From: Candidatus Parcubacteria bacterium
GTDB taxonomy: Bacteria > Patescibacteriota > Minisyncoccia > Minisyncoccales > JAGMDC01
Length of the DNA: 64,000 bases
Reading direction: 5' to 3'
NCBI GenBank assembly: GCA_023131895.1
Contig: JAGLYZ010000001.1
Location: forward strand, 72,957-136,956
Within the stretch, counting starts at the first letter, position 1. Each line of letters opens with the position of its first letter. Shown here piece by piece: positions 3,822-63,900 of the stretch. The notes beneath the pieces were generated by a model. The model was not told the origin of the DNA, made no database searches, and saw only the letters and a list, made by a program, of their open reading frames with translations. The translations under genes were made by a program, and so were the position numbers.

Positions 3822-6356
3822 ATGAAAATTTTATCAAAACTATTCGGTGATGCTAATGAAAAATATTTAAAAAAGATTCAACCAATTGTTGATGAGATAA
3901 ACAGCCTTGAATTGCAATTCAAGGATTTTTCTAATGAAAAGCTTCGTTCAAAATCAGAAGAATTCAAAGAAGAATTAAAAAAAGGCAAGACGCTTGATGA
4001 TATATTGCCAAGAGCTTTTGCATTAGTGCGAGAGGCGGCAAAAAGAACTTTAAATCAAAGGCATTTTGATGTCCAAATAATCGGCGGCATTGTTTTACAC
4101 CAAGGTAAAATCGCGGAAATGAAAACTGGAGAAGGAAAAACATTAGCTTCTACTCTGCCAATTTATTTAAATGCTTTAACAGATAAAGGCGTTCATGTGG
4201 TAACAGTTAATGATTATTTAACTAAAAGAGATACTGTCTGGATGGGGCAGATATACGACTTTCTTGGGTTGTCAGTTGGGTGCATTGTTCATGATACTGC
4301 TTATATTTATGATCCTAACTTTGGCAAGTCAGAAATCTCAAACAATGAAAGAGATGAAGAAAGAGATATTCTTGGCGGTTTTAAAGTGAGTGAGAGTTAC
4401 TTGCGTCCATGTTCAAGGAAGGATGCATACCAAGCAGATATTACTTATGGCACCAACAATGAATTTGGTTTTGATTGTTTAAGGGATAATATGGTTTATG
4501 AATTAAAAGACAAAGCTCAGCGAGAATTTGATTTCGCGATTGTTGATGAAGTTGATTCAATTTTAATTGATGAGGCTAGAACGCCTTTAATCATTTCAGC
4601 TCCTGATATAGAAGCCACAAAAATGTATTCAGAATTTGCCAGTATTATTCCTAAGTTGAATAAAGAAACTGATTATGAAATTGATGAAAAAATGAAAGCA
4701 GTTACTCTTACTGAACCAGGCATTGAAAAAATAGAGAAAATTTTAGGCATGGAAAATATTTATCAAGAAAAAGGCATTAAATATCTGCATCATTTGGAAC
4801 AGTCCTTGCGCGCCCAAGCGCTTTTTAAAAAAGACAAAGATTATGTGGTGAAACCTGCCTCGCCGCAAGGCGGGGACGGGCAAGTTATTATTGTTGATGA
4901 TTTTACCGGCCGCTTGCTTCCAGGCCGTCGTTATTCCGGTGGACTGCATCAGGCGATTGAGGCAAAAGAAGGAGTTGATGTCCAGCCAGAATCAAAAACA
5001 TTAGCTTCAATTACTTTTCAGAATTATTTCCGGCTTTACAATAAGCTAGCTGGAATGACAGGAACAGCAGCCACTTCAGGCGAAGAATTTGACAAAGTTT
5101 ATGGTTTGGAAGTTGTTATTATACCGACAAACAAGCCAATGGTTCGCGAGGTATTGCCGGATAGAATTTATAAAACAGAAAACGGAAAATTTAAATCAGT
5201 TGTGTCAGAGATTAAGAAAAGGCATGAGACAGGCCAGCCAATTCTGGTTGGCACCACTTCTATTGAAAAGAATGAGTATCTTGGCAAGCTGTTAGATATG
5301 GAAGGAATTCCTCATCAGATTTTAAACGCCAAGCATCATCAGAAAGAAGGAGAAATTATTGCCCAGGCAGGCAGATATAAGGCAGTAACTATTGCTACTA
5401 ATATGGCTGGAAGAGGAGTAGATATAATTTTAGGCGGCAATCCTTTTGATAAAGAGGAGGCAGAAAAAGTTATTAAAAGCAATGGTCTTTGCGTTATTGG
5501 CACAGATAGGCATGAAGCGAGGAGAATTGATAATCAGCTTAGGGGCAGGTCTGGAAGGCAGGGTGATCCTGGCTCTTCCCAGTTCTTTGTTTCTTTGGAA
5601 GATGATTTGCTAAGGATTTTCGGCGGAGAAAGAATTCAGAAAATGATGGAAATGCTGAAAATTCCAGAAGACCAGCCAATTGAAGCCAAAATGGTTTCAG
5701 GAGTTATTGAATCAGCGCAGGAAAAAATTGAGGGAATGAATTTTGATTTGAGAAAGCATTTATTAGATTATGATGATGTTTTAAATAAACACAGAGAGGT
5801 AATTTATAAGAAGCGGAGGGAAATCTTAGAAAAAGCTCAAGATTCAAAACTTAAAGCTCAAATTCTGGAAATAGTTAAAAAACAAGGGAAAACAGAAGCT
5901 GATTATGAGAAAAAAGAAAAAGAAATAGGTGAGGAGAATATGAGAAAAGTGGAAAAAATTATTTCTTTGCGAACTTTAGATTTTATGTGGATGGACCACT
6001 TGGAAAATATGGAATATTTGCGCGATTCTGTGCGTTTGCGTGCTTACGGACAGAAAGATCCTTTGGTGGAGTATAAAAACGAAGGGCATAAGATGTTTCG
6101 CCAGCTTCTTAATATGATTGAAGCAAATATTGTGGAAACCCTTTTTAAAGTGAGTTTAACCAAGCCTGAAGAAAAAACTGTTCCTAGTCCAGGGATGGAA
6201 TTCAGCCATCCTTCAAGTTCTGCTCCAGGAGTTTCTTCTGCCCGGCCTTCAGTCCAAAGGCCTTTAGGTAAAAGAAAAAAAATCGGCAGGAATGATCCCT
6301 GCCCCTGTGGATCGGGTAAAAAATACAAAAAGTGCTGCTGGCCCAAATATGGATAA
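3822..6356 (+). CDS. secA: Preprotein translocase ATPase SecA
   Basis: MKTGEGKTL Walker [42 protein letters not shown], and C-terminal zinc motif [13 protein letters not shown]. Confidence 0.97.
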
Positions 6357-6388
6357 AATAATACAAACACCGGGTGTTTGTATTATCG

Positions 6389-6415
6389 ACCGCCTTTCGT
6401 TGAAGGCGGTTTTTT
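6389..6415 (+). terminator. Intrinsic terminator after secA
   Basis: ACCGCC...GGCGGT hairpin followed by T6. Confidence 0.7.
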
Positions 6416-6431
6416 GGTAAAATAAAATAAT

Positions 6432-7082
6432 ATGTTTTTCTTGCCAGCCGGGTGTTCAATTTTAATACTCTTTATTCTTTTTCTACCCATTCTTTTTGTT
6501 TTGGGCTTTTTTCATATTATTACTATTGGATTTGAGAATTTAGGCATTTCGCCGGAAGCAACATTTTTATTGCTTGTTTTAATTTTATTTGGTTCAGTAG
6601 TAAATATTCCTTTGACCAGAAAAAAATTAGTTCAAGTTAAAGAATATAGATTTTTTAGTTTTTTTCATAAGCCAAAGCTAATAGAGCAGGGAATAGCTGT
6701 CAATTTAGGCGGAGGAATAATTCCTTTCCTGCTTTGCATTTTCTTTTTGTCTAAAATTCCATTAGAGCCAGTTTTAGCAGCTACTGCTTTTATGATAATT
6801 ATTTGCTATTATCTGGCTCGGATTGTTCCGGGTAGGGGAATAGCTCTGCCATTTTTTGTTCCACCGATTTTTTCAGCTATTTTTGCCTTAATTTTAGCTC
6901 CGGGATTTGCTGCTCCCTGCGCTTTTGTCTCAGGTGTCTTAGGCGCTTTAATCGGCGCTGATATTTTAAATATTAGAAAAGCGCAAAGATTGAGCCCAGG
7001 CTTTATCTCTATTGGCGGAGCCGGCGTGTTTGACGGCATCTTTTTAGTTGGCATTGTTTCATCTCTCTTAACCAGTTTCTAA
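6432..7082 (+). CDS. Polytopic membrane protein, DUF1614-like
   Basis: About 6 TM segments. C-terminal ISIGGAGVFDGIFLVGI resembles the DUF1614 signature as I recall it. Confidence 0.5.
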   Translation: MFFLPAGCSILILFILFLPILFVLGFFHIITIGFENLGISPEATFLLLVLILFGSVVNIPLTRKKLVQVKEYRFFSFFHKPKLIEQGIAVNLGGGIIPFLLCIFFLSKIPLEPVLAATAFMIIICYYLARIVPGRGIALPFFVPPIFSAIFALILAPGFAAPCAFVSGVLGALIGADILNIRKAQRLSPGFISIGGAGVFDGIFLVGIVSSLLTSF

Positions 7083-7130: not shown

Positions 7131-8558
7131 ATGTCTAAAAAAAGAATCCGTGTCATTATTGTTCTTATTTTTATCCTGGCTTTTTCAGCAGGAAATTTTG
7201 TGGAGCCGAAATATTGGAATAACACAGCTGATGTTATTAATGCCAAGAAAAATGAGATTAGATATATTGAACGCTTAACTAATATTCCACAAATGCCTGA
7301 AAAGGATTTTGTTTTAGGATTGGATTTGCAGGGAGGCACACACTTGGTCTATGAGGCAGATATGTCTAATATTGAGAAAGATGATTATACTTCTTCTTTA
7401 CAGGGATTAAGGGATGTTATTGAAAGGAGAATTAATCTTTTTGGTATTACAGAGCCAGTTGTGCAAGTCCAGAAAACATCAGGCCATCACCGTTTAATTG
7501 TGGAATTAGCCGGAATAGATGATCCAAGCAAAGCAATTGAAATGATTGGCGAAACGCCTTTTTTGGAATTTAGAGAAGAGAGAGATGATATTGATGAGAT
7601 TATAGCCAAGAGAGAAGAAGTAAATAAATATTTTGCCGAAGGAAAAACCCTTGAAGAAATAGATAATATTGTTGAAAACTGGCATTTAGCTTTTGAAGAA
7701 CCTTTTAAATCCACAGATTTAACTGGAAAATACCTTGAAAAATCAGAATTAGGTTTTGGACAAACAGCTTATGAGCCCTTGATCCTGCTTCAGTTTGACG
7801 AGGAGGGTTCAAGGCTTTTTGAAGAATTAACAGAAAGAAATATTGGCAAGCCATTAGCTATTTATATTGACGATATTATGATTTCCAGCCCTACTGTTCA
7901 GGAAAAAATTTCTGGAGGAAAAGCACAAATTACTGGCAAGTTTACTTTAGATGAGGCAAAAGAGCTTGTCCGCAATCTTTCTGCTGGCGCTTTGCCAGTT
8001 CCAATTGCATTGATTTCCCAGCAAACAGTCGGGCCAATTTTAGGAAAGGCCTCTTTAGAAAAATCCCTGACAGCAGGAATTTACGGTTTTCTGGCAATTT
8101 TGTTGTTTTTAATAGTATTTTACCGGGTTCCTGGAATTTTATCTTCAATTGCTTTAGTTATTTATGTTCTCTTAGTTTTAAGTATATTTAAGCTTATGTC
8201 AGTTACTTTAACCTTGGCTGGTATAGGCGGATTTATTTTATCTATTGGAATGGCTGTAGATGCTAATATCTTAATTTTTTCCAGAATGAGAGAGGAATTA
8301 AGAGAAGGAAAAACTTTTTCCCAGAGCGTAGACCAAGGATTTAATCGGGCTTGGCCATCTATTAAAGATGGAAATTTAACTACTCTGATTGTTGCTTTTA
8401 TTTTATTTGCTTTTGGAACAAGCTTTGTGAAAGGCTTTGCTTTGACTTTGAGTTTGGGGATTCTTTTAAGCATGTTTTCTGCCATTTTTATTACTAAAAA
8501 CTTTTTAGAGTATTTTAAAGGAACACGATTAGAAAAATTTGGCAGATTATGGAAATAG
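7131..8558 (+). CDS. secD: Protein translocase subunit SecD
   Basis: LGLDLQGGTHLVYE, LGPILGKASL, and the C-terminal 6-TM SecD/SecF domain (LAGIGGFILSIGMAVDANILIF). Confidence 0.93.
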   Translation: MSKKRIRVIIVLIFILAFSAGNFVEPKYWNNTADVINAKKNEIRYIERLTNIPQMPEKDFVLGLDLQGGTHLVYEADMSNIEKDDYTSSLQGLRDVIERRINLFGITEPVVQVQKTSGHHRLIVELAGIDDPSKAIEMIGETPFLEFREERDDIDEIIAKREEVNKYFAEGKTLEEIDNIVENWHLAFEEPFKSTDLTGKYLEKSELGFGQTAYEPLILLQFDEEGSRLFEELTERNIGKPLAIYIDDIMISSPTVQEKISGGKAQITGKFTLDEAKELVRNLSAGALPVPIALISQQTVGPILGKASLEKSLTAGIYGFLAILLFLIVFYRVPGILSSIALVIYVLLVLSIFKLMSVTLTLAGIGGFILSIGMAVDANILIFSRMREELREGKTFSQSVDQGFNRAWPSIKDGNLTTLIVAFILFAFGTSFVKGFALTLSLGILLSMFSAIFITKNFLEYFKGTRLEKFGRLWK

Positions 8559-8708
8559 TGCTCGGCAATAAAGTTTTAAAGTACCGGCTGTTCAAATCTC
8601 CAGCGAGATTTGCCAGCCTACGCTCTCGCCTCGCTGCTCCGATTTAAAATCGGAGACCATGCCAGCGAGGCTCCGAGAGTTACTTTAAAACCTTATTGTC
8701 TCGCTCAC
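8558..8708. repeat. MITE/REP-like structured element filling the secD-secF spacer
   Basis: Imperfect terminal inverted repeats GTGCTCGGCAATAAAGTTTTAAAGTA (8558-8583) and TACTTTAAAACCTTATTGTCTCGCTCAC (8681-8708). GC-rich nested hairpins inside, including CTCCGATTTAAAATCGGAG at 8637-8655. Confidence 0.5.
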
Positions 8709-8724
8709 TATTATTCGTAGATTT

Positions 8725-11887: not shown

Positions 11888-13180
11888 ATGGAAGATCAAA
11901 TTTTTGTAATTTTTAATACCATTTGGAATTTTTTAAGGACTTGGTGGTGGATTATTCTGCCGTTTATTTTAATCAAGCCCTTTTTATTTATTTATCTTTG
12001 GTGGAGAAATCAGGTTTGGTTTGGCAAGATGAGATCTATCGTATTGGAAATAAAACCGCCAAAAGAAGTTCTAAGACCTATTAAGGCAATGGAGACAGTT
12101 TTTAATGGCTTATGGCATTTTTACGACCCGCCTAATTACAGGGAAAAATGGTTTGAAGGAAAAATGCAATTAGGTTTTTCTTTGGAAATTGCCTGTTTTG
12201 GAGGTGAGCCCCATTTTTTTATTAGAATTCCAGAAAATGCTCGTAATTTAGTTGAATCAACGCTTTATTCCCAATATCCTGATTTAGAAATTAAAGAAGT
12301 TGATGATTATACTAAAAAAGTTCCCCAGGATGTTCCAAATAAGGACTGGGAAATATGGGGCACTGATTATGAACAGCTAAAAGATGATATTTATCCCATT
12401 AAGACCTATTCTAAATTTTTTGAAGAAAAACCAGAAATATCAAAGGAAGAAAAAAGAATTGATCCTATGTCTAATCTTTTGGAAGGTATGGCAAAATTTA
12501 AGCCAGGGGAGCAGTTATGGGTTCAAATTATGGCTAAGCCGGTTTCTCATCTTGAAGAAAGTAAAGATTTTATAGAGAAGGCAAAAAAAGAAGTAGATAA
12601 ATTAGTGAACAGGCCAAAACCGTCAGTTTCAAAACCAATAGTTGAAGAAGCAATAGATGTCCTAGTTACTGGCGAGCCGCCAAAAGAAGAAGAAGAAAAA
12701 AAAGAAGGAGGCATTATGCCCGCAATGGAGCTGACGCCCGGGGAGATGAAAGTAGTATCTGCTATTGAAGATAAAATAAGCAAATATGCTTTTGAATGCA
12801 GTATAAGGTTTCTTCAATTAGGAAAAAGGGATGTGTTTTTTTCCCCTAACAAAGCTATTCCAATGGGCTTTTTTGACCTTTTTGGTACAGTTGATCTTAA
12901 TGGATTAAAGCCAATGAGAAGAACCATTACTAAAGTTCATACTGTTTGGCTTTGGTTTTTAGACAATAGAAGGGTTTATGTTCGGAAAAGAAGAATGTTT
13001 AGAAATTTTATTGAAAGATTAGGTCCTTTTTGTCCATGGCCAGGCGGCACTTTTATTCTAAATATTGAAGAATTAGCTTCTTTGTATCATTTTCCAGGTA
13101 GAGGAGTTACAGCTGCGCCTTCTATTTCAAGAGTAGAGGCAAAGAGAGGCGAAGCTCCGATTGAATTACCTACAGAGTAA
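11888..13180 (+). CDS. Membrane-anchored protein of unknown function, translationally coupled to the following VirD4/TraD-like ATPase
   Basis: Two Trp-rich N-terminal TM segments and a large soluble domain. There is a 5-nt gap to the next gene. Confidence 0.6.
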   Translation: MEDQIFVIFNTIWNFLRTWWWIILPFILIKPFLFIYLWWRNQVWFGKMRSIVLEIKPPKEVLRPIKAMETVFNGLWHFYDPPNYREKWFEGKMQLGFSLEIACFGGEPHFFIRIPENARNLVESTLYSQYPDLEIKEVDDYTKKVPQDVPNKDWEIWGTDYEQLKDDIYPIKTYSKFFEEKPEISKEEKRIDPMSNLLEGMAKFKPGEQLWVQIMAKPVSHLEESKDFIEKAKKEVDKLVNRPKPSVSKPIVEEAIDVLVTGEPPKEEEEKKEGGIMPAMELTPGEMKVVSAIEDKISKYAFECSIRFLQLGKRDVFFSPNKAIPMGFFDLFGTVDLNGLKPMRRTITKVHTVWLWFLDNRRVYVRKRRMFRNFIERLGPFCPWPGGTFILNIEELASLYHFPGRGVTAAPSISRVEAKRGEAPIELPTE

Positions 13181-13185
13181 AATTT

Positions 13186-14790
13186 ATGGATATAAATTTT
13201 TTCGGGGAAACAAATTTTCGTAATATTAGGAAAAAATTCGGAATAAAAGCCGATGACAGGCGCCGGCATGTTTATGCTGTGGGAAAAACCGGCATGGGTA
13301 AAACAGTTATGCTGGAGAATATGGCTATTCAAGATATTCAGCAAGGCCATGGGATAGGTTTTGTTGACCCTCATGGCGAAGCATCGGAAAACCTTCTTGA
13401 TTTTGTTCCAAAAAATAGAATTAAAGATGTTATTTATTTTAATCCTGCTGATTTAGATTATCCTATTGCTTTTAATGTTATGGAAGAAGTAGATCCGGAA
13501 AAAAGGCATTTAGTAGCCGGCGGTTTGATGGGCGTTTTTAAAAAAATCTGGCCTGATGTCTGGTCAGCCAGAATGGAATATATTTTAAACAATTGTATTT
13601 TAGCTCTTTTAGAATATCCAGGTTCTACTCTTTTAGGTGTTAATCGAATGCTGGCTGATATTGATTATCGCAAGAAAGTCGTAGAAAAAGTGACTGATCC
13701 AGTAGTAAAAGCGTTTTGGACTCAAGAATTTGCCAGATATAATCAAAGATATGAGACAGAGGCAACCGCTGCTATTCAAAATAAAATTGGCCAGTTTATA
13801 TCCGCGCCTTTAATTAGAAATATTATTGGCCAGACAAAATCAACTATTAATGTGAGGCAGGCAATGGATGAAGGAAAGATTTTAATATTGAATTTATCCA
13901 AAGGGAAAATAGGTGAAGATGCTTCCCGTTTATTAGGGGCTCTTTTAATTACTAGAATACAATTAGCTGCTATGTCCAGAGTTGATGTGCCGGAAGAAAA
14001 AAGAAGAGACTTTTTCCTTTATGTAGATGAATTTCAAAACTTTGCCACTGAATCATTTGTTAATATATTATCTGAAGCGCGTAAATACCGCTTGTCTTTA
14101 ATTTTAGCCCATCAGTACATTACTCAAATGGAAGAAACAGTAAGAGACGCGGTTTTTGGAAACGTGGGCACAATTGTTTCTTTTCGAGTGGGAGCAGAAG
14201 ATGCAGAATTTTTAGAAAAAGAGTTTCTACCAGAGTTTAATGGTTCTGATTTAGTTAATTTGGCAAAATATAATATTTATTTGAAACTAATGATTGATGG
14301 CTTGGCAGGCAGGCCGTTTTCAGCTGAAACCTTATCTCCCGAATCAAAGTTAGAAGAATCAAATAAAGAAGCAATTATTCAGGAATCCAGAAAACAATAT
14401 GGTACAGAAAAAAAATCTGTTGAGGAAAGCATTATTCAGTGGGCAGAGCCCATAGAGGGAGTTGAACCAGTATTGGCAGAACCGCAGGTTCTTTACGATG
14501 CCCAATGCCAGAACTGCAAGAGAATGATAAAAGTTCCTTTTAAACCAGATGGAGTAAGGCCTGTTTATTGCAAAACCTGCCTTGAAAAAATAAAGAGAGG
14601 AGAAAAAGAAGAAGAACCGAAAGACAAAGATATGTCTTTAAGCGAAGCGATAAAACAGGAGCCTGTTTTTTTCCGACCCGGCAAAAGGGAAAAAAATGAA
14701 AGGGAGAAGCGTCCCAAAAAGGAAATAGATATACAAGGATTAAAAGAAGTTTTAAAAGAGTCCCTAAAGAAAGAAGAAGATAAAAAATGA
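13186..14790 (+). CDS. VirD4/TraD/TrwB-like (type IV coupling protein family) P-loop ATPase with C-terminal zinc ribbon
   Basis: Walker A GKTGMGKT, Walker B-like FFLYVDEFQNFAT, RKYRLSLILAHQYITQM, and C-terminal CQNCKRMIKVPFKPDGVRPVYCKTC. Confidence 0.7.
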   Translation: MDINFFGETNFRNIRKKFGIKADDRRRHVYAVGKTGMGKTVMLENMAIQDIQQGHGIGFVDPHGEASENLLDFVPKNRIKDVIYFNPADLDYPIAFNVMEEVDPEKRHLVAGGLMGVFKKIWPDVWSARMEYILNNCILALLEYPGSTLLGVNRMLADIDYRKKVVEKVTDPVVKAFWTQEFARYNQRYETEATAAIQNKIGQFISAPLIRNIIGQTKSTINVRQAMDEGKILILNLSKGKIGEDASRLLGALLITRIQLAAMSRVDVPEEKRRDFFLYVDEFQNFATESFVNILSEARKYRLSLILAHQYITQMEETVRDAVFGNVGTIVSFRVGAEDAEFLEKEFLPEFNGSDLVNLAKYNIYLKLMIDGLAGRPFSAETLSPESKLEESNKEAIIQESRKQYGTEKKSVEESIIQWAEPIEGVEPVLAEPQVLYDAQCQNCKRMIKVPFKPDGVRPVYCKTCLEKIKRGEKEEEPKDKDMSLSEAIKQEPVFFRPGKREKNEREKRPKKEIDIQGLKEVLKESLKKEEDKK

Positions 14791-17860: not shown

Positions 17861-17889
17861 TTGACAGATTGTTTTTAGTTTGTTATTAT
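17861..17889 (+). promoter_or_regulatory. Sigma-70-type promoter of rnpB
   Basis: TTGACA, 17 nt, TATTAT, ending about 8 nt before the P1 stem. Confidence 0.7.
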
Positions 17890-17896
17890 AAAAATA

Positions 17897-18300
17897 GTTC
17901 AAGCAGGCAAGGCAATCGCTGAGCATTCAGTTCGCTGAGTGCTTAGAGGAAAGTCCGAACACCCATTCTAAGCAATTTATGTGCTTAGTTTAAAAAGATA
18001 GCGGCTAACAGCCGTCGACCGCAAGGTTAGAGGTGCGAACAGTGACGCCGAAGCTCGAAAGAGCTGAGGCGCCGAGCACTCAGTTTGCTGAGTGCTTGGC
18101 GAATCGAGCACGTAAATTTTATGTGCTCGGGTGAAACGGCTAAATCCTTATCGGGTGCAAGAACAAGCATTTCGGCAATCTCCGGATTTGCCGAAATGAA
18201 AAAGTGGTTCGCTTTAGTCAAGAAGTAATTCTTGGCATAGATAAATGATTGCCTCCCCGCTAAAAGCGGGGAACAGAATTCGGCTTATTGCCTGCTTGGG
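17897..18300 (+). ncRNA. rnpB: RNase P RNA (bacterial)
   Basis: P4 strands GAGGAAAGTCCGAAC and ACAGAATTCGGCTTA. P1 pairing CAAGCAGGCAA/TTGCCTGCTTG. Local GC is higher than the surroundings. Confidence 0.93.
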
Positions 18301-18337
18301 CTTTTTTATTTACAAAAAACAAGTTAAAATAAGATTG

Positions 18338-19021: not shown

Positions 19022-20405
19022 AAGAGTTTTTAATCTACAAACAAAAAACATTAATTCAGCTGCTTTGATTTTGGGCGTGGCTTTTTTAATCAGCGCTCTT
19101 TTAGGTTTTATTAGGGATCGGCTTTTAGCCGGGAAATTCGGCGCTGGAGATGAATTAGATATCTATTATGCTGCTTTTGAAATTCCGGATTTTTTGACAA
19201 TGGTCTTAATGACAGGCGCTATTTCCGCAGCCATTATCCCTATTTTCAGTGAATATTTAATTTCTTCAAAAGAAAAGGCATGGGAGTATCTTTCTAATCT
19301 TGTTAATTTGTTTTTGTTTATTTTAATAATTGCTTCTCTTATTTTGTTTATATTTGCCCCTCAATTAATTTCTATAATTACCCCTGGTTTTTCCGGTGAA
19401 AAGAAAGAATTAACAATACTTTTAACTAGAATTATGTTTTTAAGCCCGATTATCTTGGGAATGAGCAATATTTTCTCTGCAGTCCTGCGCGTTTTTAAGA
19501 GATTTTTCATTACTTCTTTAGCTCCCATAGTATATAATCTTGGTATTATTTTTGGCATTTTATTTTTTGTTCCCTATATGGGCATTAAAGGTTTGGCTTG
19601 GGGAGTAGTATTTGGAGCTTTCCTGCATTTTTTGATCCAGATTCCGATTTTATTTAAAACAGGATTTAGGCATCAAAAACTTTTTAATTTTTTTGAACCG
19701 AGTTTTAGAAAAACAATAAAACTAACCATTCCCAGATCCATAGGTTTGGCAGCTGCTCAAATTAATTTAGTAGTAGTGACCATAATTGCTTCTACTTTGA
19801 GCGCTGGAAGCATAGCTGTTTTTAATTTAGCTGAAAATCTTTCACGTCCTCTTTTGACATTAGCGGCAATCTCTTTTTCCACTGCTGCTTTTCCCAGTTT
19901 AAGCTTGTCATTCGCTAAAAAGCAAAAAGAAAAATTTGACAAAATTTTTCTCTCTGTTTTTTATAAAATTCTTTTTTTAAGCTTATTTTTAAGTATTCTC
20001 CTTTTTCTTTTTAAAGAAGAAGTAGTCAACATTATTCTGGGAGTGGGGAGGTTCAGTTTGCTTGATGCGCAATTAACTTCTGCTTGTCTGGGAATGCTTT
20101 GTTTCGGCATTTTTGCCCAATCATTGGTTCTTTTAATCGCTAAAACATTTTACGCTGTCCAAAATACTAAGATCCCGGCTTTCACCAGTGTAGCGGCAAC
20201 CCTGTTAAATATTTTTCTTTGCTTTTATTTTGTTCATTTGCTTTCTTTCGCTAATTCTTTCCAGCAGTTTTGGACAGGTTTTCTTAATATTGAGAGTTTA
20301 GCAAATATTCAGGTTATTGGCCTGCCTTTAGCCCTGTCTCTTTCAGCTATTTTTCAACTTGCCTTGCTTTTAATATTTTCAACCAAATTAAAATGGAACC
20401 AATAA
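19014..20405 (+). CDS. murJ: Lipid II flippase MurJ/MviN
   Basis: AALILGVAFLISALLGFIRDRLLAGKFGAG...YYAAFEIPDF N-terminal signature and about 14 TM segments. Confidence 0.9.
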   Translation: MIRRVFNLQTKNINSAALILGVAFLISALLGFIRDRLLAGKFGAGDELDIYYAAFEIPDFLTMVLMTGAISAAIIPIFSEYLISSKEKAWEYLSNLVNLFLFILIIASLILFIFAPQLISIITPGFSGEKKELTILLTRIMFLSPIILGMSNIFSAVLRVFKRFFITSLAPIVYNLGIIFGILFFVPYMGIKGLAWGVVFGAFLHFLIQIPILFKTGFRHQKLFNFFEPSFRKTIKLTIPRSIGLAAAQINLVVVTIIASTLSAGSIAVFNLAENLSRPLLTLAAISFSTAAFPSLSLSFAKKQKEKFDKIFLSVFYKILFLSLFLSILLFLFKEEVVNIILGVGRFSLLDAQLTSACLGMLCFGIFAQSLVLLIAKTFYAVQNTKIPAFTSVAATLLNIFLCFYFVHLLSFANSFQQFWTGFLNIESLANIQVIGLPLALSLSAIFQLALLLIFSTKLKWNQ

Positions 20406-22243
20406 AAAAACAGATTCGCAATTTTGTAATTATTTCGCATGTGGACCATGGCAAATCTACTTTAGCAGACAGGTTTTTAGAACTGACTAATACTGTTCCA
20501 GACAACAAAATGCAGGAGCAGTTTTTAGATATGATGGATTTGGAAAGAGAAAGAGGAATTACAATCAAACTTCAGCCAGTTAGAATGGAATTAGATACAG
20601 ATAGTTTAAAAATTAAAAATTTAAAATTAAAAATTCCAGATTCAAAATTTATTTTGAATCTGGTTGATACTCCTGGACATGTAGATTTTTCCTATGAGGT
20701 TTCCCGCGCGTTAGCGGCTGTAGAAGGAGCTATTTTATTAGTAGATGCTGCGAAAGGAGTCCAGGCGCAAACATTGGCTAATTTAGAATTAGCCAAAAAG
20801 CAGGGATTAGCAATTATTCCAATAATTAATAAAATTGATTTACAGCAAGCGAGAACCGAAGAAACAAAGCAGGAATTAGCTAAGCTCTTAAACATTTCAG
20901 AACAAGACATCCTGTCTATTTCTGCTAAAAAAGGCATTAATATTGAAAAAGTTTTAGAAGCGATAATTGCCAAAGTAAAGCCTCCAGAAATAAATCAGGA
21001 CAGGCCTTTGCGAGCTTTGATTTTTGATTCAAAATTTGATTCTTATAAAGGAGTAATTGCCTATGTCCGAGTTATAGACGGCCAGATCAGCAATGATGAG
21101 AAAATATATTTAATGGCTTCTGAAACTGAATCAAAAATAAAAGAACTCGGTTATTTCAAGCCGGAATTGTCTCCCCAAAAAAAGCTATCAGCTGGTGAAA
21201 TAGGGTATATTGCCACTGGCATTAAAGAACCTGGAAAGGTGAGAGTAGGAGACACCATAACCAAGTTAAAAGTTAAAAGTGAAAAGTTAAAAATTGTTGA
21301 TATTGAGGCGTTGCCGGGTTATAAAGAGCCGAAGCCGGTTGTTTTTATAAGCGTGTATCCAGAGAATAGTGATAGATACGGCTTACTAAGAGAATCTTTG
21401 AACAAATTGAAGCTTAATGATGCTTCTTTGTATTTTGAGCCGGAACATAAGGAGATTTTTGGACAGGGATTCCGCTGCGGATTTCTTGGTTCTCTTCATT
21501 TAGAAATTACAGTAGAACGTCTTCACCGGGAATTTGATTTAGATTTAGTAGTTTTTTCGCCTTCAGTTGTTTATAAAATTATAGATAAAGTGGATAAGGA
21601 AATTTTTGTTTATTCATCAGCTGAATGGCCGGATCTCGCGATAATAAAAGAAATTCAAGAGCCGTATGTGAAGCTGGAAATAATCTGTTTTTCAGACGCC
21701 TTAGGCAATATAATGAAAATCTTAGATGAATTGCAAGGCAGGTATATCAAGACAGAATATCTTGGGTTAAATAAACCGCTATTGACTTATCATATTCCTT
21801 TAAGAGAAGTAATCACTGGTTTTTATGATAAGCTTATGTCTGTGAGCCAAGGTTATGCTTCTATGAATTATGAAATTTTAGGATATGAAAAATCCGATTT
21901 AGTCAAACTAGAAATATTAATAATCGGAAAAAAAGAGGAAGCATTTTCAAGAATCGTTCCAAAAGAAAAAGCATATCCAGAAGCAAGGACATTTTTAAAG
22001 AAAATAAAAGAAGTGCTGCCTCAGCAGCAATTCAGTGTTCCTTTGCAGGCCGTAATTGGCGGCAAGATAATTGCCAGAGAAACAATCAGCTCCAGAGGAA
22101 AGGATGTTATTGCTCCTCTTTACGGCGGCGATTATAGCAGAAAAAGAAAACTTTTGGAAAAGCAGAAAAAGGGGAAAAAGAAACTCAAGGAAAAAGCCCA
22201 GATTAAAATCCCTTCCGATGTTTATCTAAAAGTTTTGAGTTAA
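20393..22243 (+). CDS. lepA: Elongation factor 4 (LepA)
   Basis: IRNFVIISHVDHGKSTLADR, DTPGHVDF, NKIDL, and the LepA C-terminal domain (YDKLMSVSQGYASMNYE). Confidence 0.95.
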   Translation: MEPIKKQIRNFVIISHVDHGKSTLADRFLELTNTVPDNKMQEQFLDMMDLERERGITIKLQPVRMELDTDSLKIKNLKLKIPDSKFILNLVDTPGHVDFSYEVSRALAAVEGAILLVDAAKGVQAQTLANLELAKKQGLAIIPIINKIDLQQARTEETKQELAKLLNISEQDILSISAKKGINIEKVLEAIIAKVKPPEINQDRPLRALIFDSKFDSYKGVIAYVRVIDGQISNDEKIYLMASETESKIKELGYFKPELSPQKKLSAGEIGYIATGIKEPGKVRVGDTITKLKVKSEKLKIVDIEALPGYKEPKPVVFISVYPENSDRYGLLRESLNKLKLNDASLYFEPEHKEIFGQGFRCGFLGSLHLEITVERLHREFDLDLVVFSPSVVYKIIDKVDKEIFVYSSAEWPDLAIIKEIQEPYVKLEIICFSDALGNIMKILDELQGRYIKTEYLGLNKPLLTYHIPLREVITGFYDKLMSVSQGYASMNYEILGYEKSDLVKLEILIIGKKEEAFSRIVPKEKAYPEARTFLKKIKEVLPQQQFSVPLQAVIGGKIIARETISSRGKDVIAPLYGGDYSRKRKLLEKQKKGKKKLKEKAQIKIPSDVYLKVLS

Positions 22244-22394: not shown

Positions 22395-22787
22395 ATGATA
22401 ACAAAAAAAAGAAAATATGGAAAGAAAGGAGATAATGATTTGCGTTCATTATTGTATTTTCTGTTTTTTTTGATTTTTGTATTTGGGATAATAAGTTATC
22501 TGATTATTTCTAATTGGAATATAACTCAAAAAAGAGCTGAACTTCGCTTGCAAAAGCAAGAATTGCAGAGAGAAGTGCAGGCCTTAGAAGCAAGAAAGGC
22601 GCAGCTGGAGGCTGGAGTTTATCAAACAACCCAAGATGAATATTTAGAGGAGAAAATCAGGGAGCAGGGCTATAAAAAGCAGGGCGAGGAGGCAGTGGTA
22701 ATTAAAAAAGAAATAGAGGATGAAAATCAGGTACAAAAAGAACGAGGTTTTTTAGATAAATTTTTAGAAAAATTTATCGATAAATAG
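22395..22787 (+). CDS. Septum formation initiator family protein (FtsB/DivIC-like)
   Basis: N-terminal TM, coiled coil LQKQELQREVQALEARKAQLE, then EEKIREQGYKKQGEEAVVI. Confidence 0.65.
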   Translation: MITKKRKYGKKGDNDLRSLLYFLFFLIFVFGIISYLIISNWNITQKRAELRLQKQELQREVQALEARKAQLEAGVYQTTQDEYLEEKIREQGYKKQGEEAVVIKKEIEDENQVQKERGFLDKFLEKFIDK

Positions 22788-22808
22788 TCCATATTTAGAT
22801 ATATATGT

Positions 22809-22865
22809 CCAGCCTTCGCTGACTTTGCGGGCTTTGCCCGCCGAAGCCAGCTACGGCTGGCGAAG
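22809..22865 (+). repeat. GC-rich palindromic repeat cluster abutting the tRNA-Gly 5' end
   Basis: CCTTCGC pairs with GCGAAGG. Inner hairpins GCGGGC-TTT-GCCCGC and GCCAGC-TACG-GCTGGC. Shares the GCTACGGC(G/T)GG core with the mnmA inserts. Confidence 0.6.
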
Positions 22866-22940: not shown

Positions 22941-23012
22941 GCCGGGATAGCTCAGTGGAAGAGCAGCGGTTTCGTAAATCGCAGGTCGAGAGTTCAAATC
23001 TCTCTCCCGGCT
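22941..23012 (+). tRNA. tRNA-Thr (anticodon CGU)
   Basis: Acceptor GCCGGGA/TCCCGGC, D arm GCTC-AGTGGAA-GAGC, anticodon loop TTCGTAA, T arm GAGAG-TTCAAAT-CTCTC, followed by a T-run. Confidence 0.85.
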
Positions 23013-23032
23013 CTTTTTTTCCGATTAATGTT

Positions 23033-23185
23033 TTAGGCAAGGACATTTGTCGGTTCGTTAATTGATAATAATTGTAGCATTTCATTGGGTGTTTTTCCGT
23101 TCAGTCCGCAGTGCTCAAGGTTATTATATTCATCATTCCATACTTTTATTTTTCTTTCCAGTTCTTTTAGATTTCTAAAATCACT
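23033..23185 (-). pseudogene. C-terminal ~50-codon remnant of a DDE (integrase-core/rve type) transposase
   Basis: Minus-strand translation SDFRNLKELERKIKVWNDEYNNLEHCGLNGKTPNEMLQLL matches the W..YN..RPH..L.GKTP.E tail of rve-domain transposases. Truncated by an upstream TGA. Confidence 0.5.
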
Positions 23186-23193
23186 TCAAACTC

Positions 23194-23222
23194 TTGACAA
23201 GATTTTAATGGTATATTATAAT
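23194..23222 (+). promoter_or_regulatory. Consensus sigma-70 promoter
   Basis: TTGACA (23194-23199), exactly 17 nt, TATAAT (23217-23222). Confidence 0.75.
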
Positions 23223-23228
23223 ACAAGC

Positions 23229-24324
23229 GTTAGAGAATAAAAATAGTTTTTTGAAAAAAATAAATAATATAAAGGTTATTAAAGGAGAGAGTAATAACCA
23301 TTAGCCATCAAATTTGATGATTATAATCATGTTTAAATAGGCGACTCTCTCTAAGAGTCGCTTATTTAAATAAAAGTTATACATGGTAGGGAGAGGGATG
23401 AAGAGGAGAGAGTACCCTGGATTTGCGGAGACCAGCAAAATAATGCTGTAGGCAGGAATCGTTAAAGGTTGCTTGCCATTACTACTCTAATCTGGAGTAT
23501 CAAAAAAATCTTCTTCATCCCTTTCCTTAATATAAGAGGAGAGAAATAATAATAGTTCTTTATTCAAAATAGTTCTTTAATACAAGCGATGAACGGGATT
23601 AAGGATTGAGCAATTAAACCCTGAATAAGAGCAATCTTGTATAGGGTAGAGGAGAGAGGTAATCCTTAGTTAGTTCTCGCAAAACAAAAATTAGTAGTGA
23701 GTGTCTGCTTCGGAGTTCTCGGAGCGACGGTTCCGGAGATGAAAGCCTCTACGCTGTTTTTGGCGAAGATGAAGCCGCCTATGGAACTGTAGGTGGCTTG
23801 GAAGGACAGGAAGAAGTGCAGGAAACAACAGAACAACTGGTGGAACGGTACGAAATTCGCGACGGCATCGCCGTAGTGGATGTCAGAGATGTCAGTGATG
23901 ATTACGACCGCACACAGCTTTTAGTGAAAGGAGAACAAATGGCTCCCACGAAGACAGCAGTGCTTTTGGGTAAAAACCCAGAAAGCGAGGAGATAGTCAC
24001 GATAGCGACGATGGACAAGGAACTCAATTTGGTGAACCTGTTTGGTCTGCCAAGCGGAGCGCCATTCAGGATTAGTTTGCCAGTCGCAGCTGGTTGGACA
24101 ATAGAGAAAGTGTTGAAAGCACTTTCTCACTAAAATCAAAATTTTGAAGGAAGTATACTCATTCCTTCCTCCTCTTTATTTTTAAGCTCACAAGACTTGT
24201 CCTGAGCTTGTCGAAGGATTGCGGGTTTAAAAATGAAGAATTCAAAGAGACCAGAAGCGTTCTCGCAGTAGATAAGAAATCTCTCTCCTCTCTGCTGTGA
24301 GAACACTTTTGGTCTTTTCTTTTT
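23229..24324 (+). ncRNA. Candidate ~1.1 kb highly structured transcript (large ncRNA, or a long structured leader plus a small foreign ORF)
   Basis: Bounded by the consensus promoter and a 20-bp hairpin plus T-run (24249-24324). Many long hairpins. The 3' half is GC-richer than its surroundings, as at rnpB. Four GGAGAGAG motifs. Confidence 0.4.
23798..24133 (+). CDS. Doubtful ORF (111 codons from TTG; alternative 64-aa product from ATG 23939 behind AAAGGAG)
   Basis: Open frame in the GC-rich segment. G/C-ending codons differ from all neighbouring genes. No family recognised. Confidence 0.3.
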   Translation: MEGQEEVQETTEQLVERYEIRDGIAVVDVRDVSDDYDRTQLLVKGEQMAPTKTAVLLGKNPESEEIVTIATMDKELNLVNLFGLPSGAPFRISLPVAAGWTIEKVLKALSH

Positions 24325-24447
24325 GGCGATTTTTGCTATAATTGTAAGTGAAGAAGAAATACAAGAATTTATTCTTGTATTTCAACTGAACGAGCAATTA
24401 GAAGGTTCTGCCGAGTAGAGCGAGGTAGGTTCTTATACTAAAATTGT

Positions 24448-25546
24448 ATGAAGGATTTTGAGGAAAACATCAGAAATTTAGAAGATAAAATCCTCTATTT
24501 AGAGGACCGTCTTTGACTTAGCTAAGAAACAGGAAAAAATCAAAGAATTAGAAAAAAAAGCCCAAAGGCCTGATTTCTGGAATGAAAGAGAAAAAGCAGC
24601 TGAAATTTCCCAAGAATTAGCTGATTTGAAAGAAGAAACAGAAAAATTTGAAAAATTTAAAAAGGATTTAGAGGAATTAAAAGAAATAATTAAATTAAAT
24701 GACGAGAGTTTAGAAAAAGAAATTGAAGAAAGAATTTTTCAAATTGAGAAAGAAATAAAAAAACAAGAACAGAGAACTTTTCTTTCTGGCAAATATGACA
24801 AAGGTAATGCCATACTTTCTATTTATTCTGGCGCTGGCGGACAGGATGCCCAGGACTGGGCAACAATACTTTTACGTATGTATAAAAGGTATACTGAAAG
24901 AAAAGGATTTAAAACAAAACTTTTACACCAGTCATTTGGCGAACCAGGCGGTCCAGAAGGAAGAATAGGCACAAAATCAGCGACTTTTGAAATAAAAGGA
25001 AAGTATGCTTATGGTTTTTTGAAAAAGGAAACAGGAGTTCACCGTTTAGTAAGAATTTCTCCTTTTTCTCCGCAAAAACTTCGCCATACCTCTTTTGCCT
25101 TGGTTGAAGTTCTGCCAGAAATTTCAAAAATAGATGAAGAGGAAATGAAGATTAAGCCAGATGACTTAAAAATTGATGTTTTTCGGGCTTCTGGTCCTGG
25201 AGGACAGTATGTCAACAAAAGAGAATCAGCAATCCGCATTACTTATATTCCAAGCAATACTGTGGTGAGCTGCCAGAGTGAACGCTTACAGGGATTGAAT
25301 AGGGGGAAGGCAATGAAATTATTATATGCCAAACTTTATCAATTAAGAGAAAAAGAAAGACAAAAAGAAGTTAAGAAAGCAAAGGGCAAATCAATTTCTG
25401 CTGAATGGGGAAATCAAATCAGGTCATATGTTATTCATCCTTATAAAATGGTAAAAGATTTAAGAACAGATGTGGAAACCTCTAATGTGGAAGATGTTTT
25501 AGACGGAAACTTAGATAAGTTCATTGAGGCAGAAATTAAAAAATAA
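24448..25546 (+). CDS. prfB: Peptide chain release factor 2, with programmed +1 frameshift at 24511-24517
   Basis: ORF0 is MKDFEENIRNLEDKILYLEDRL, then CTT TGA C. The +1 frame continues DLAKKQEKIKELE. SPF and GGQ motifs are present. An SD-like GAGGA lies upstream of the shift site. Confidence 0.93.
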
Positions 25547-62497: not shown

Positions 62498-63685
62498 ATG
62501 AAAAAGCAATCTGCTGACTGGCGGAGAAAAACCAGAGTAGTAGTAGCGATGTCTGGAGGAGTTGATTCTTCAGTAGCAGCTGCTTTATTAAAAAAACAAG
62601 GCCTTGAAGTTCAAGGTGTTTTTTTAAATCTTTTTGATTCAGAAAGTTTTAAAGAATCAGAAAAAAGAGCTAAAAAAATAGCAGGAATTTTAGAAATTCC
62701 TTTTTTTGTTTTAGATTTAAGAAAAGAATTTAAAAAGAAGATAATTGATTATTTTATTAAAGAGCTTCAGCAAGGTAAAACACCAAATCCCTGTGTTTTA
62801 TGTAATAAAGAAATTAAGTTCGGATTTTTTTTAAAAAAGCTTAGAGAACTAAAAATTAGTTTTGATTTCATCGCCACCGGGCACTATGTAAAACTTAAAA
62901 CAAAAAACAAGAAAGCCAAAACTACAAGTCAAAAGTCAAAAGCTACTTACAAATTATTGAGAGCTAAAGATAAAGAAAAAGACCAATCATATTTTCTTTG
63001 GATGCTTAATCAAAAACAATTGAGGCAGATTTTATTTCCTATTGGAAATTATACTAAACAAGAGGTTAAAAATTTAGCTAAGAAATTTAGATTGCCGGTT
63101 TTTTCTTCTGAATCACAGGAAATTTGCTTTATTGGAAAAGATTTAAATGGCTTTCTAAGAAAGAATTTTAAAACTAAAAAAGGCGATATTATAAATACCA
63201 AAGGAGAAATTATCGGAGAACATCAAGGATTGTGCTTCTATACAATTGGCCAGAGAAAAGGCATAGGAGTTGGTGGAGGACCCGCCTCCGCTGAAGCTAC
63301 GGCGGGCAAGCCATATTATGTCTTAGATAAAGATATAAAGAAAAATATTTTAATTGTCACTAAGAACGAAAAGGACTTGCATAAAAAAGAATTAATAGTC
63401 AAAAAAATTAATTGGATTTCTGGAAAAGAGCCCTGCCTTCGCCAAGGCTACGGCGGGCAAGCAAAATTTTCTATAAAAATTAAAGCAAAAATTCGTTATC
63501 GCCACAAATCCGTTGAAGCAAAAATTACAAGGAAGTCGGACTTCCTTAAGGAAGTCCGACTTCCTAAAACTTTCAAAGAATATAAAGTGATTTTTTCACG
63601 CTCTCAGCGAGCCATTACTCCAGGCCAATCAGTAGTTTTTTACCAAAGAAACGAACTCTTAGGCGGCGGAATCATAAAAAGTTAA
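62498..63685 (+). CDS. mnmA: tRNA 2-thiouridine(34) synthase MnmA, carrying three palindromic in-frame inserts
   Basis: VVVAMSGGVDSSVAA PP-loop, NPCVLCNKEIKF, ATGHY, DQSYFL and ITPGQSVVFY. Confidence 0.93.
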   Translation: MKKQSADWRRKTRVVVAMSGGVDSSVAAALLKKQGLEVQGVFLNLFDSESFKESEKRAKKIAGILEIPFFVLDLRKEFKKKIIDYFIKELQQGKTPNPCVLCNKEIKFGFFLKKLRELKISFDFIATGHYVKLKTKNKKAKTTSQKSKATYKLLRAKDKEKDQSYFLWMLNQKQLRQILFPIGNYTKQEVKNLAKKFRLPVFSSESQEICFIGKDLNGFLRKNFKTKKGDIINTKGEIIGEHQGLCFYTIGQRKGIGVGGGPASAEATAGKPYYVLDKDIKKNILIVTKNEKDLHKKELIVKKINWISGKEPCLRQGYGGQAKFSIKIKAKIRYRHKSVEAKITRKSDFLKEVRLPKTFKEYKVIFSRSQRAITPGQSVVFYQRNELLGGGIIKS

Positions 63686-63900
63686 ATGTCACAAAGTAGC
63701 ACGATTGTGCTACTTTGTGATGGGTTTGATATAGTGATATACAAAATCTTACGAAACCGGATTTCGTAAGATTTTGTTTAGAATTTCTATTGACATATTT
63801 TTAGAAATTTGATAGAAACAAAATACCATAAAATGGTGGATCTTTTACATTTGAATATCCCACCGTATGATTATAAAAAGAAAAAGGAGGTTGATGGAAA

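Follow-up and report, generated by a model that had tools for sequence, protein, structure and literature searches.

The 64,000-nucleotide (nt) window of the Candidatus Parcubacteria contig, to whose positions all coordinates refer, contains a unit at 23194–24324 that an initial annotation had read as one large ornate RNA. The unit lies between a tRNA gene and prfB, in the order lepA, divIC, tRNA-Gly, tRNA-Thr, flagged unit, prfB (Table 1). We compared it with the syntenic loci of relatives whose LepA is 75–77% identical. The unit is a mosaic in a decaying accessory island and not one 1.1-kb RNA. Its 5' half is a structured noncoding RNA behind a consensus promoter, and its 3' half is the relic of a protein-coding gene.

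A structured RNA behind a consensus promoter

The promoter (TTGACA, 17-nt spacer, TATAAT) matched the sigma-70 consensus at 12 of 12 positions, as initially claimed, and was the sole perfect match in the window. Two matches with one mismatch lie upstream of rnpB (17861) and of an open reading frame (ORF; 10873). The former, TTGACA-17-TATTAT at 17861–17889, directly precedes the RNase P RNA (17900–18302) and can serve as an internal yardstick for strong promoters of noncoding RNAs in this genome. Judged by its consensus elements, the promoter of the unit is as strong as that before rnpB, and transcription is expected to start near 23229. In the relative L170, a TTGACA-17-TACAAT promoter occupies the aligned position (5543–5571).

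The segment 23229–23700 (472 nt) yielded a minimum free energy of −148 kcal/mol on the plus strand, as compared with −93 kcal/mol for dinucleotide shuffles (z = −12.2). The stability beyond shuffles was strand-specific: the minus strand reached just z = −5.2, because many of the RNA pairs are G–U. Among 270 tiles of 472 nt from both window strands, the RNA tile was the most over-stable, exceeding its shuffles by 60 kcal/mol, ahead of the RNase P RNA tile with 47 kcal/mol (mean 8.8, standard deviation 10). The copies of the RNA found in L049 and L170 also folded strongly (z = −10.0 and −10.7, respectively).

The fold comprises the elements H1 to H5 and the 5' half of a closing three-way junction. 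Two of the helices had been described initially in a shorter form: the 17-base-pair (bp) hairpin at 23332–23370 extends to 19 bp as H2, and the long-range helix 23394–23406/23510–23522 extends to 21 bp as H3. The four copies of a purine motif reported there were also recovered; AGGAGAGA has four plus-strand copies in the whole window, all within 23283–23650. Their spacing is 121, 133, and 113 nt, and the units are otherwise dissimilar. The first copy is displayed in a hairpin loop, as had been stated, with a GGTTATTA/TAATAACC stem around AAGGAGAGAG. All four tracts contain GGA, tract 1 being the only one in a hairpin loop, and all four are invariant in the window, L170, and L049. L170 and L049 have an additional stem-loop inside the H1 loop, which leaves H1 undisturbed.

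The tracts have a counterpart at the end of the island. Tracts 2 and 4 are each perfectly complementary over 11 nt to the loop of the terminal hairpin (24281–24291), and tract 3 is 92% complementary over 13 nt to 24279–24291. This loop, CTCTCTCCTCT, had been recognized initially as the complement of the motif, and no other plus-strand site in the window complements the tracts over 9 nt or more.

Two sources supplied homologues of the RNA. L049 was recovered from a metagenome collection by back-translated patterns, and L170 was reached as a further LepA relative; the two are 97% identical. L049 shares 86% identity with the window RNA over 366 nt. In L170, the homologous stretch spans 5541–6166 and the RNA copy is 647 nt long; the order of lepA, divIC, tRNA-Gly, tRNA-Thr, promoter, RNA, and csx3 places it at the same locus as in the window. 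Between genomes, the core of the RNA has 86% identity, as compared with 76% (nucleotide) for the adjoining divIC. A covariance model of H5, run over the compared loci except L170, recovered just the copies already known, those of L049 and the window.

Covariation in homologues had been proposed as a check on the RNA claim. We compared 103 base pairs across the three sequences: 83 were invariant, 9 had changed on one side and 7 on both sides with pairing retained, and 4 were broken, three of them at helix ends or loop-closing positions. The RNAalifold counts agreed with this tally. The helices were kept by compensatory or consistent substitutions in three sequences from two lineages. H2 kept its CUCUCUC apex, with 3 of 13 stem pairs changed on both sides. 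Hairpin B kept its shape on another sequence (an outer stem of 5–6 bp, a 1-nt 3' bulge, and an inner stem of 4 bp). The changes in H3 and H5 were limited to G–U to G–C or A–U to G–U steps, and the H5 domain kept 34 of 34 pairs between the window and L049.

In L170 and L049, an 18-bp helix (GAGUGC..GCUUCGGUGUUC / GAACACCGAAGC..GCACUC) closes the three-way junction with which the RNA ends. The window retains the 5' strand alone of this helix, followed by a piece resembling L009, and the homology to L170 and L049 ends at 23735. The window copy is therefore 3'-truncated. By comparison with L170, the intact RNA measures about 650 nt, of which the window keeps about 507 nt. An independent Logan contig is 100% identical over 23274–24386, which speaks against an assembly chimera at the junction of the RNA and the DHH gene relic.

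No conserved ORF was found in the RNA: every frame in the window is interrupted, and the ORFs of L049 differ from those of the window. A concatenated six-frame conceptual peptide query gave no match among 5.8 billion proteins. Small ORFs after each Shine–Dalgarno (SD)-like tract and an Ile-rich leader peptide (MIIIMFK) were rejected, as they are not kept in L049 or L170. An ORF of 18–31 amino acids (aa), MS(V/A)CFGVLG at 23697, was likewise set aside; it lacks an SD sequence, and the helix of the three-way junction accounts for its conservation. Tandem Repeats Finder detected no array in 23223–24330, the sole row nearby (21-nt period, 23136–23176) lying in the transposase fragment. An antitoxin RNA of a type III toxin–antitoxin system and a CRISPR array were both rejected, as that range has no tandem array and the window has no CRISPR-like array.

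The Rfam 15 scan of the window at gathering thresholds found just RNase P RNA and three tRNAs. None of the GOLLD, ROOL, HEARO, OLE, raiA, and group I and II intron models reached its threshold, in line with the initial failure to match the sequence to a large-RNA family. A permissive scan of 22950–24450 gave noise alone (miRNA-like hairpin matches and GOLLD below threshold). Rfam assigned no family in the homologous loci L049, L010, L009, and L011, and literature searches found no RNA of this kind described.

The gene relic and the accessory island

The 3' half of the unit contains an ORF annotated in GenBank as a 111-aa hypothetical protein (KAT95_00390). A word-indexed protein search gave the self match alone and made it appear an orphan, which an exhaustive HMMER search overturned. 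The latter returned 56 relatives, proteins 280–330 aa long, whose C-terminal ~115 aa match residues 46–156 of the open frame (23798–24130). The best match, P0122, is 69% identical over its residues 195–312 of 326 (E = 1.8e-44). At the nucleotide level, the relic is 76.7% identical to L010 2869–3175. P0124, considered as a free-standing 110-aa C-terminal domain protein, was discarded because the contig end cuts it.

The full-length homologues carry N-terminal HGDxDG, D, and DHH motifs with a weak Pfam DHH match, and some are fused to Cas10 palm domains. In a tblastn search of the 64-kb window with these proteins, residues from ~176–195 to the C-terminus alone were found and no N-terminal DHH domain; the C-terminal homology is present, and the N-terminal catalytic domain is not. 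The family resembles the DHH/DHHA1 phosphoesterases (NrnA, RecJ, GdpP superfamily) in that the full-length homologues contain HGDLDG, VDIAVN, and DHHQG and, after these motifs, a C-terminal domain that includes GLPSGAPFRVSLP. It differs in that the window encodes the C-terminal third alone and in that the full-length family is divergent, its Pfam DHH matches being mostly below threshold and without NCBIfam assignment. No sequence relative of the DHH-like family was found in the PDB.

The part with ~50% GC (23700–24130), which had been taken initially for a structured RNA because of its GC enrichment, coincides with this coding relic; the folded RNA has ~26–38% GC, equal to the genome background. 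Given the homology of the relic to DHH C-termini, we read the GC enrichment as the mark of foreign coding DNA and not of RNA structure. The segment 23700–24140 folds better than its shuffles (z = −3.7). An 11-bp perfect hairpin, GAGAAAGTG TTGAA AGCACTTTCTC, lies at 24100–24126, at the end of the relic ORF just before the stop.

The insert between tRNA-Thr and prfB spans 23014 to ~24311 (~1.3 kb). In two lineages without the insertion (L005 and L006/L007/L008), just ~65 nt separate the two genes, and this ancestral spacer consists of a short terminator hairpin followed by TTTTCTTTTTGGCAATTTTTGCTATCAT. As a whole, the unit is a decayed insertion missing from close relatives. L002/L003 carry at this site another insert of 1.4 kb with two unrelated ORFs; its promoter (CTCTTGACAA...) at 12549 and its long terminal hairpin are homologous to those of the window. 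L171 carries a PIN-like toxin there, matching the start of the L010 cassette array. Since relatives have no insert or other cassettes at the tRNA-Thr/prfB site, the comparison identifies it as a hypervariable cassette hot spot. In L002, nested direct repeats flank the cassettes (12546–12570 with 13884–13908, and 13266–13301 with 13934–13966), one pair being CTCTTGACAAATTTTTCARAGT and the other a TCTTTTCTTTTTGGCAATTTTTGCTATA terminator/promoter block. These repeats suggest that cassettes are gained via recombination at short shared sequences.

Possible signs of a mobile element at the island are a 12-nt repeat and one weakly matching transposase fragment. The repeat, AAATCTCTCTCC, occurs in tRNA-Thr (22996–23007) and in the terminal hairpin (24277–24288), which bears out the initially noted identity of the loop with the tRNA; it is the sole possible att-like repeat. 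The same loop sequence is present in L002, though the tRNA-Thr of L002 lacks it. The fragment between tRNA-Thr and the promoter matched Pfam rve_3 (E = 0.0027, below the gathering score) and PHROG transposase families (E = 0.0017), and its assignment to the rve type, weak as it is, agrees with the YN..H..L...TP.E motif. No integrase, cas10, or CRISPR array was found in the window.

Downstream of the relic ORF, the sequence is collinear, with deletions, to the cassette ends of L010, L011, and L049. The hairpin at 24145–24186 is not significantly stable by itself in the window (z = −0.6), and homologous elements occur 3' of genes in L010 (3600–3650), L049, and L011. In the terminal hairpin (24245–24318; −42 kcal/mol, z = −6 to −7), a single mismatch separates 13 pairs from 14, and UUUUCUUUUU comes directly after it, so that a stable hairpin and a U-run, the two features of an intrinsic terminator, are combined. 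Its 27 pairs exceed the 20 bp initially described. A consensus terminator scan missed it solely because its loop is longer than 8 nt. Homologous terminal hairpins were found in L002 (13190–13290) and L010 (4049–4185), with the base CCAGA(A)G/CUUUUGG and the CU tract conserved; a pattern search of genome contigs gave 120 chance matches, L162 (L002-like) alone being real. Because the hairpin is present in islands without the RNA (L002, L010), we assign it to the island end and not to the RNA. Of the bounds drawn for the unit in the initial annotation, the promoter thus keeps its role as the start of the RNA, and the terminal hairpin loses its role as the end.

The U-run and the −10 box of prfB, from 24312 on, are ancestral sequence seen in L005 and L006. 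This −10 box, TGCTATAAT at 24333–24341, lies directly 3' of the terminal hairpin. The prfB gene itself has the classical site for programmed +1 frameshifting (CTT TGA C, 24511–24517).

The related islands carry recognizable cargo. In L170, the island headed by the RNA at the tRNA-Thr site carries csx3, the gene of a type III CRISPR ring nuclease (Csx3/Crn3), together with a DHH/HD-like ORF. The Csx3 assignment follows from matches to Pfam Cas_csx3 (1.8e-22) and in PADLOC (1e-24). The downstream ORF was considered as a DHH–Cas10 fusion and rejected, as it gave just weak DHH and HD matches and no similarity to P0147. The island resembles accessory islands at tRNA genes with type III CRISPR ancillary modules in its hypervariable site adjoining a tRNA gene, its transposase fragment, and the cargo of its relatives (csx3 and DHH-like proteins, some of them fused to a Cas10 palm). 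It differs from them in that the window lacks an integrase, cas10, and a CRISPR array, and in that each cassette is delimited by a promoter and hairpins of its own instead of known att/attC sites.

Three further elements recur in these islands. A leader of ~150 nt (GCCATCTGGAGACGAGG...GACAGC...AAGATGGTTCATTCTTATTGA...TTTAGGAGGTGATAAGAATG) precedes various cassette genes, among them csx3 and an 84-aa ORF. It was located in L049 (reverse complement, 730–875 and 1690–1828), L010 (900–990), and L170 (~6344–6500 and 7303–7471). No Rfam family matches this leader, and we regard it as a candidate cis-regulatory RNA. The cassette-boundary motif TAG(C/T)ACATT(A/G/C)AAA(GCACTC), often with TTGACA/TTGAAA upstream at promoter spacing, occurs in L009 (~1011), L010 (1376, 1773), L049, L002 (12617), and L170 (5458–5490); it is probably a cassette promoter or operator. 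The leader of a small zinc-ribbon ORF (L009 1030–1170, L010 1790–2070) contains the segments CCTGCTGG, TCAGCAGGAGG (with an SD sequence), and TCTGCTGGG, which could form mutually exclusive, switch-like helices around variable CCGAAT-like repeats.

Palindromes were also noted elsewhere in the window. A near-perfect compound inverted repeat of ~170 nt at 8551–8720, between two ORFs, folds symmetrically on the two strands (−78 and −81 kcal/mol) and is therefore probably a DNA-level palindromic element. At 63349–63820, a cluster of perfect palindromes, both strands of which are strongly over-stable, contains a 16-bp palindrome inside an ORF (GGAAGTCGGACTTCC TTAA GGAAGTCCGACTTCC) and then two terminator-like hairpins. 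The GC-rich palindromic segments at 22800–22865, 63425–63460, and 8590–8660, one of which lies just upstream of tRNA-Gly, have common CCTTCGC...GGCTACGGC-like words and may form a family of REP-like (repetitive extragenic palindromic) repeats.

Table 1. Features of the tRNA-Thr/prfB locus (window positions)
Feature	Position	Strand	Remarks
lepA	20393–22243		
divIC	22395–22787		
tRNA-Gly			between divIC and tRNA-Thr
tRNA-Thr	22941–23013		
Putative rve-type transposase/integrase fragment	23040–23190	−	C-terminal, ~50 codons; pseudogene remnant; translation SDFRNLKELERKIKVWNDEYNNLEHCGLNGKTPNEMLQLLSINEPTNVLA and stop
Sigma-70 promoter	23194–23222	+	−35 TTGACA 23194–23199; −10 TATAAT 23217–23222
Structured noncoding RNA	23229–23735	+	507 nt, 3'-truncated; from stability, homologues, and pair conservation
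H1 hairpin	23274–23299	+	purine tract 1 in loop
Purine tract 1	23282–23292	+	AAGGAGAGAGT; loop of H1; invariant despite stem-loop insert in L170/L049
H2 hairpin	23330–23372	+	19 bp; CUCUCUC apical tract
H3 helix	23387–23407 with 23509–23529	+	21 bp including 3 G–U; encloses multi-hairpin domain 23412–23500
Purine tract 2	23402–23414	+	AGAGGAGAGAGTA; apical end of H3 and adjoining internal loop; invariant in three copies
Purine tract 3	23535–23547	+	AGAGGAGAGAAAT; paired in H4; present in three copies
H4	23536–23565	+	contains purine tract 3
H5 domain	23586–23680	+	purine tract 4 in internal loop
Purine tract 4	23648–23660	+	AGAGGAGAGAGGT; internal loop of H5 domain; invariant in three copies
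5' half of closing three-way junction	23697–23735	+	3' strand gone in window
Recombination-junction piece	23720–23793	+	86% nucleotide identity to L009 1217–1290, start of small ORF (protein P0159)
5'-truncated gene relic	23798–24133	+	C-terminal DHHA1-like third of DHH-family phosphoesterase; frame open from 23663
Cassette 3' hairpin	24145–24186	+	GAAGGAA/TTCCTTC, then CTCCTCTTTATTTTT; weak terminator candidate
Long terminal hairpin	24245–24324	+	27 bp; loop AAGAAAUCUCUCUCCUCUCUG, then U-run
prfB	24449–25546		

Interpretation of the RNA and its rivals

With the above results in hand, we favor, as a probable though by no means certain reading, a promoter-driven, stand-alone, heavily paired noncoding RNA of an unclassified family that has come to lie next to a gene relic in a decaying island. 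Recombination or deletion would have taken away the 3' closing helix of the window RNA, and the same event would have joined the RNA to the small-ORF scrap and to the C-terminal third of the DHH phosphoesterase gene. With the RNA fused to the relic after the loss of its 3' end, transcription would have to run through the relic to the cassette-end hairpins. The initial proposal of a large ornate RNA thus stands as to a structured noncoding RNA adjoining a tRNA, and falls as to its size, which is ~510 nt here (~650 nt intact) instead of 1.1 kb. Conservation of an ORF at the protein level, named there as what would speak against an RNA, was observed for the 3' half (DHH C-terminus, E down to 1e-44), and the RNA half has no conserved ORF.

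Several points weigh against this reading. A predicted closing helix P1 (23229–23238 with 23572–23581) is broken twice in L170 and was dropped. L049 and L170 being nearly identical, the three copies represent two lineages, so that few independent events underlie the covariation; G–U to G–C transitions, which are cheap, make up most of the consistent changes. The window copy may be inactive, its 3' domain missing. Long near-perfect helices are what decayed palindromic DNA would yield, although the strand asymmetry speaks otherwise. No more copies were found in viral contigs, phage and plasmid records, or 5.8 billion proteins: blastn searches of phage and plasmid collections returned no relevant match, exact 21-mers from the conserved blocks and back-translated peptide patterns had no match in IMG/VR, and the motif-spacing pattern AGGAGAGA..AGGAGAGA..AGGAGAGA gave 35 chance or tandem-repeat matches in viral contigs, none related. 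The 8.7 kb available for L170 contain no complement of at least 9 nt to the tracts. L002 has the CU-loop hairpin and no RNA, and the proposed pairing of tracts and loop is therefore unsupported by co-occurrence.

As to how the molecule might work, it would act as RNA, its helices displaying the four invariant SD-like purine tracts AGGAGAGAG. These tracts would base-pair with CU-rich stretches in hairpins, the candidates being the apical CUCUCUC of H2, the terminal hairpin of the island with its CUCUCUCCUCU loop, and cassette terminators, whose 3' arms are CU-rich. In this way, the RNA would influence how island transcripts fold and terminate, or how stable they are. We regard this RNA–RNA pairing mechanism as speculative and put it forward with some doubt. 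Slightly better placed, and still tentative, is the wider proposal of a new large (~650 nt) structured RNA class of the candidate phyla radiation (CPR), which would head tRNA-Thr islands with type III CRISPR ancillary enzymes (Csx3, DHH) and work via the four invariant AGGAGAGAG tracts as an RNA–RNA regulator or as a decoy, its targets being CU-rich hairpins, ribosomes, or RNases of defence systems.

Among known RNAs, ROOL and GOLLD (RF02032), which occur on phages and mobile elements and often adjoin tRNA genes, are alike in size class (~500–650 nt), in their multi-domain fold without an ORF, and in their location on a mobile or variable island adjoining tRNA genes. The differences are considerable. 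The best GOLLD match reached 11.9 bits, as compared with a gathering threshold of 150, on the opposite strand and outside the RNA, and ROOL gave no match. The present RNA is dominated by near-perfect helices of 13–21 bp and repeated purine tracts, and its three known copies are all in Parcubacteria-type contigs. By analogy, we describe it as an unclassified family of the same general kind as the large ornate mobile-element RNAs; since the covariance models fail, it is a member of neither ROOL nor GOLLD.

The strongest competitor of the stand-alone RNA, which we nevertheless hold to be rather unlikely, is a cis-acting leader: the structured 500 nt would be a long 5' untranslated region of the cassette genes, csx3 in L170 and formerly DHH here, acting by processive antitermination through cassette-end terminators, by RNase protection, or by SD sequestration. 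The RNA is co-oriented with the cargo genes and directly upstream of them in all copies. In L170 and L049, its closing hairpin is followed by just CUUAUUAUA, a poor U-tract, so read-through is plausible; the window has no terminator between RNA and ORF, and the island offers many terminator-like hairpins for an antiterminator to pass. However, csx3 in L170 and L049 has its own promoter-like motif (TTGAAA/TTGACA..TACATT) and its own leader of ~150 nt, and this leader is also seen ahead of other cassettes that lack the large RNA. A length of 500–650 nt is far above the sizes of known antitermination or riboswitch leaders, and no start codon follows any of the four SD-like tracts.

That the segment has no RNA function at all appears improbable. 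It would then consist of decayed cassette junctions or palindromic DNA resembling miniature inverted-repeat transposable elements, and its likeness to L170 would reflect recent ancestry or transfer of junk. The island is indeed decaying, as seen from the transposase fragment, the truncated DHH gene, and the truncated 3' end of the RNA; the family is very rare, and the window has strong palindromes elsewhere. Against this stands the excess stability of −60 kcal/mol on the plus strand and −30 kcal/mol on the minus strand, an asymmetry that comes from many G–U pairs and is unexpected for DNA palindromes. Moreover, H2 and hairpin B keep their shape and position on different sequences, the stems vary around four invariant tracts, the core is conserved above the adjoining protein gene, and both lineages conserve the consensus promoter.

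A sponge in the manner of CsrB/RsmZ, in which four exposed AGGAGAGAG tracts titrate a CsrA-type GGA-binding protein or, via the anti-SD sequence, 30S subunits, seems very unlikely. The RNA shares with CsrB/RsmZ its predicted strong transcription, given the promoter, and a repeated GGA-containing SD-like motif, which in one case is AAAGGAG in a hairpin loop. On the other hand, the invariant motif AGGAGAGAG is longer, its conservation reaching beyond GGA and the SD core; of the tracts, just one occupies a short hairpin loop of the classical type, and two are for the most part paired; and the RNA is larger and more base-paired. csrA was not seen, though no search aimed at csrA was made, and the 3' end of 16S rRNA lies outside the window.

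The whole of 23194–24324 as one GOLLD/ROOL-type ornate RNA can be given hardly any credence: the promoter and the strong terminal hairpin do bracket the unit beside tRNA genes, and 23700–24140 does fold somewhat above shuffles, but the protein-level homology of 23798–24133 to DHH-family C-termini refutes the 3' half, the homology to the other RNA copies stops at 23735, the terminal hairpin occurs in islands without the RNA, and the large-RNA and intron models do not match.

The locus can serve as a case study of a hot spot for hypervariable cassettes located between prfB and a tRNA gene, and the annotation of KAT95_00390 is corrected to a truncated gene relic. To our knowledge, large structured noncoding RNAs (>400 nt) of unexplained function are rare. 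Each such class (OLE, GOLLD, ROOL, HEARO, raiA) has opened new biology. For Parcubacteria, with their tiny genomes, a noncoding RNA of 650 nt under a consensus promoter comes at a cost. Its place at the head of islands with enzymes that degrade cyclic oligoadenylates may point to a connection with type III CRISPR signalling or with counter-defence.

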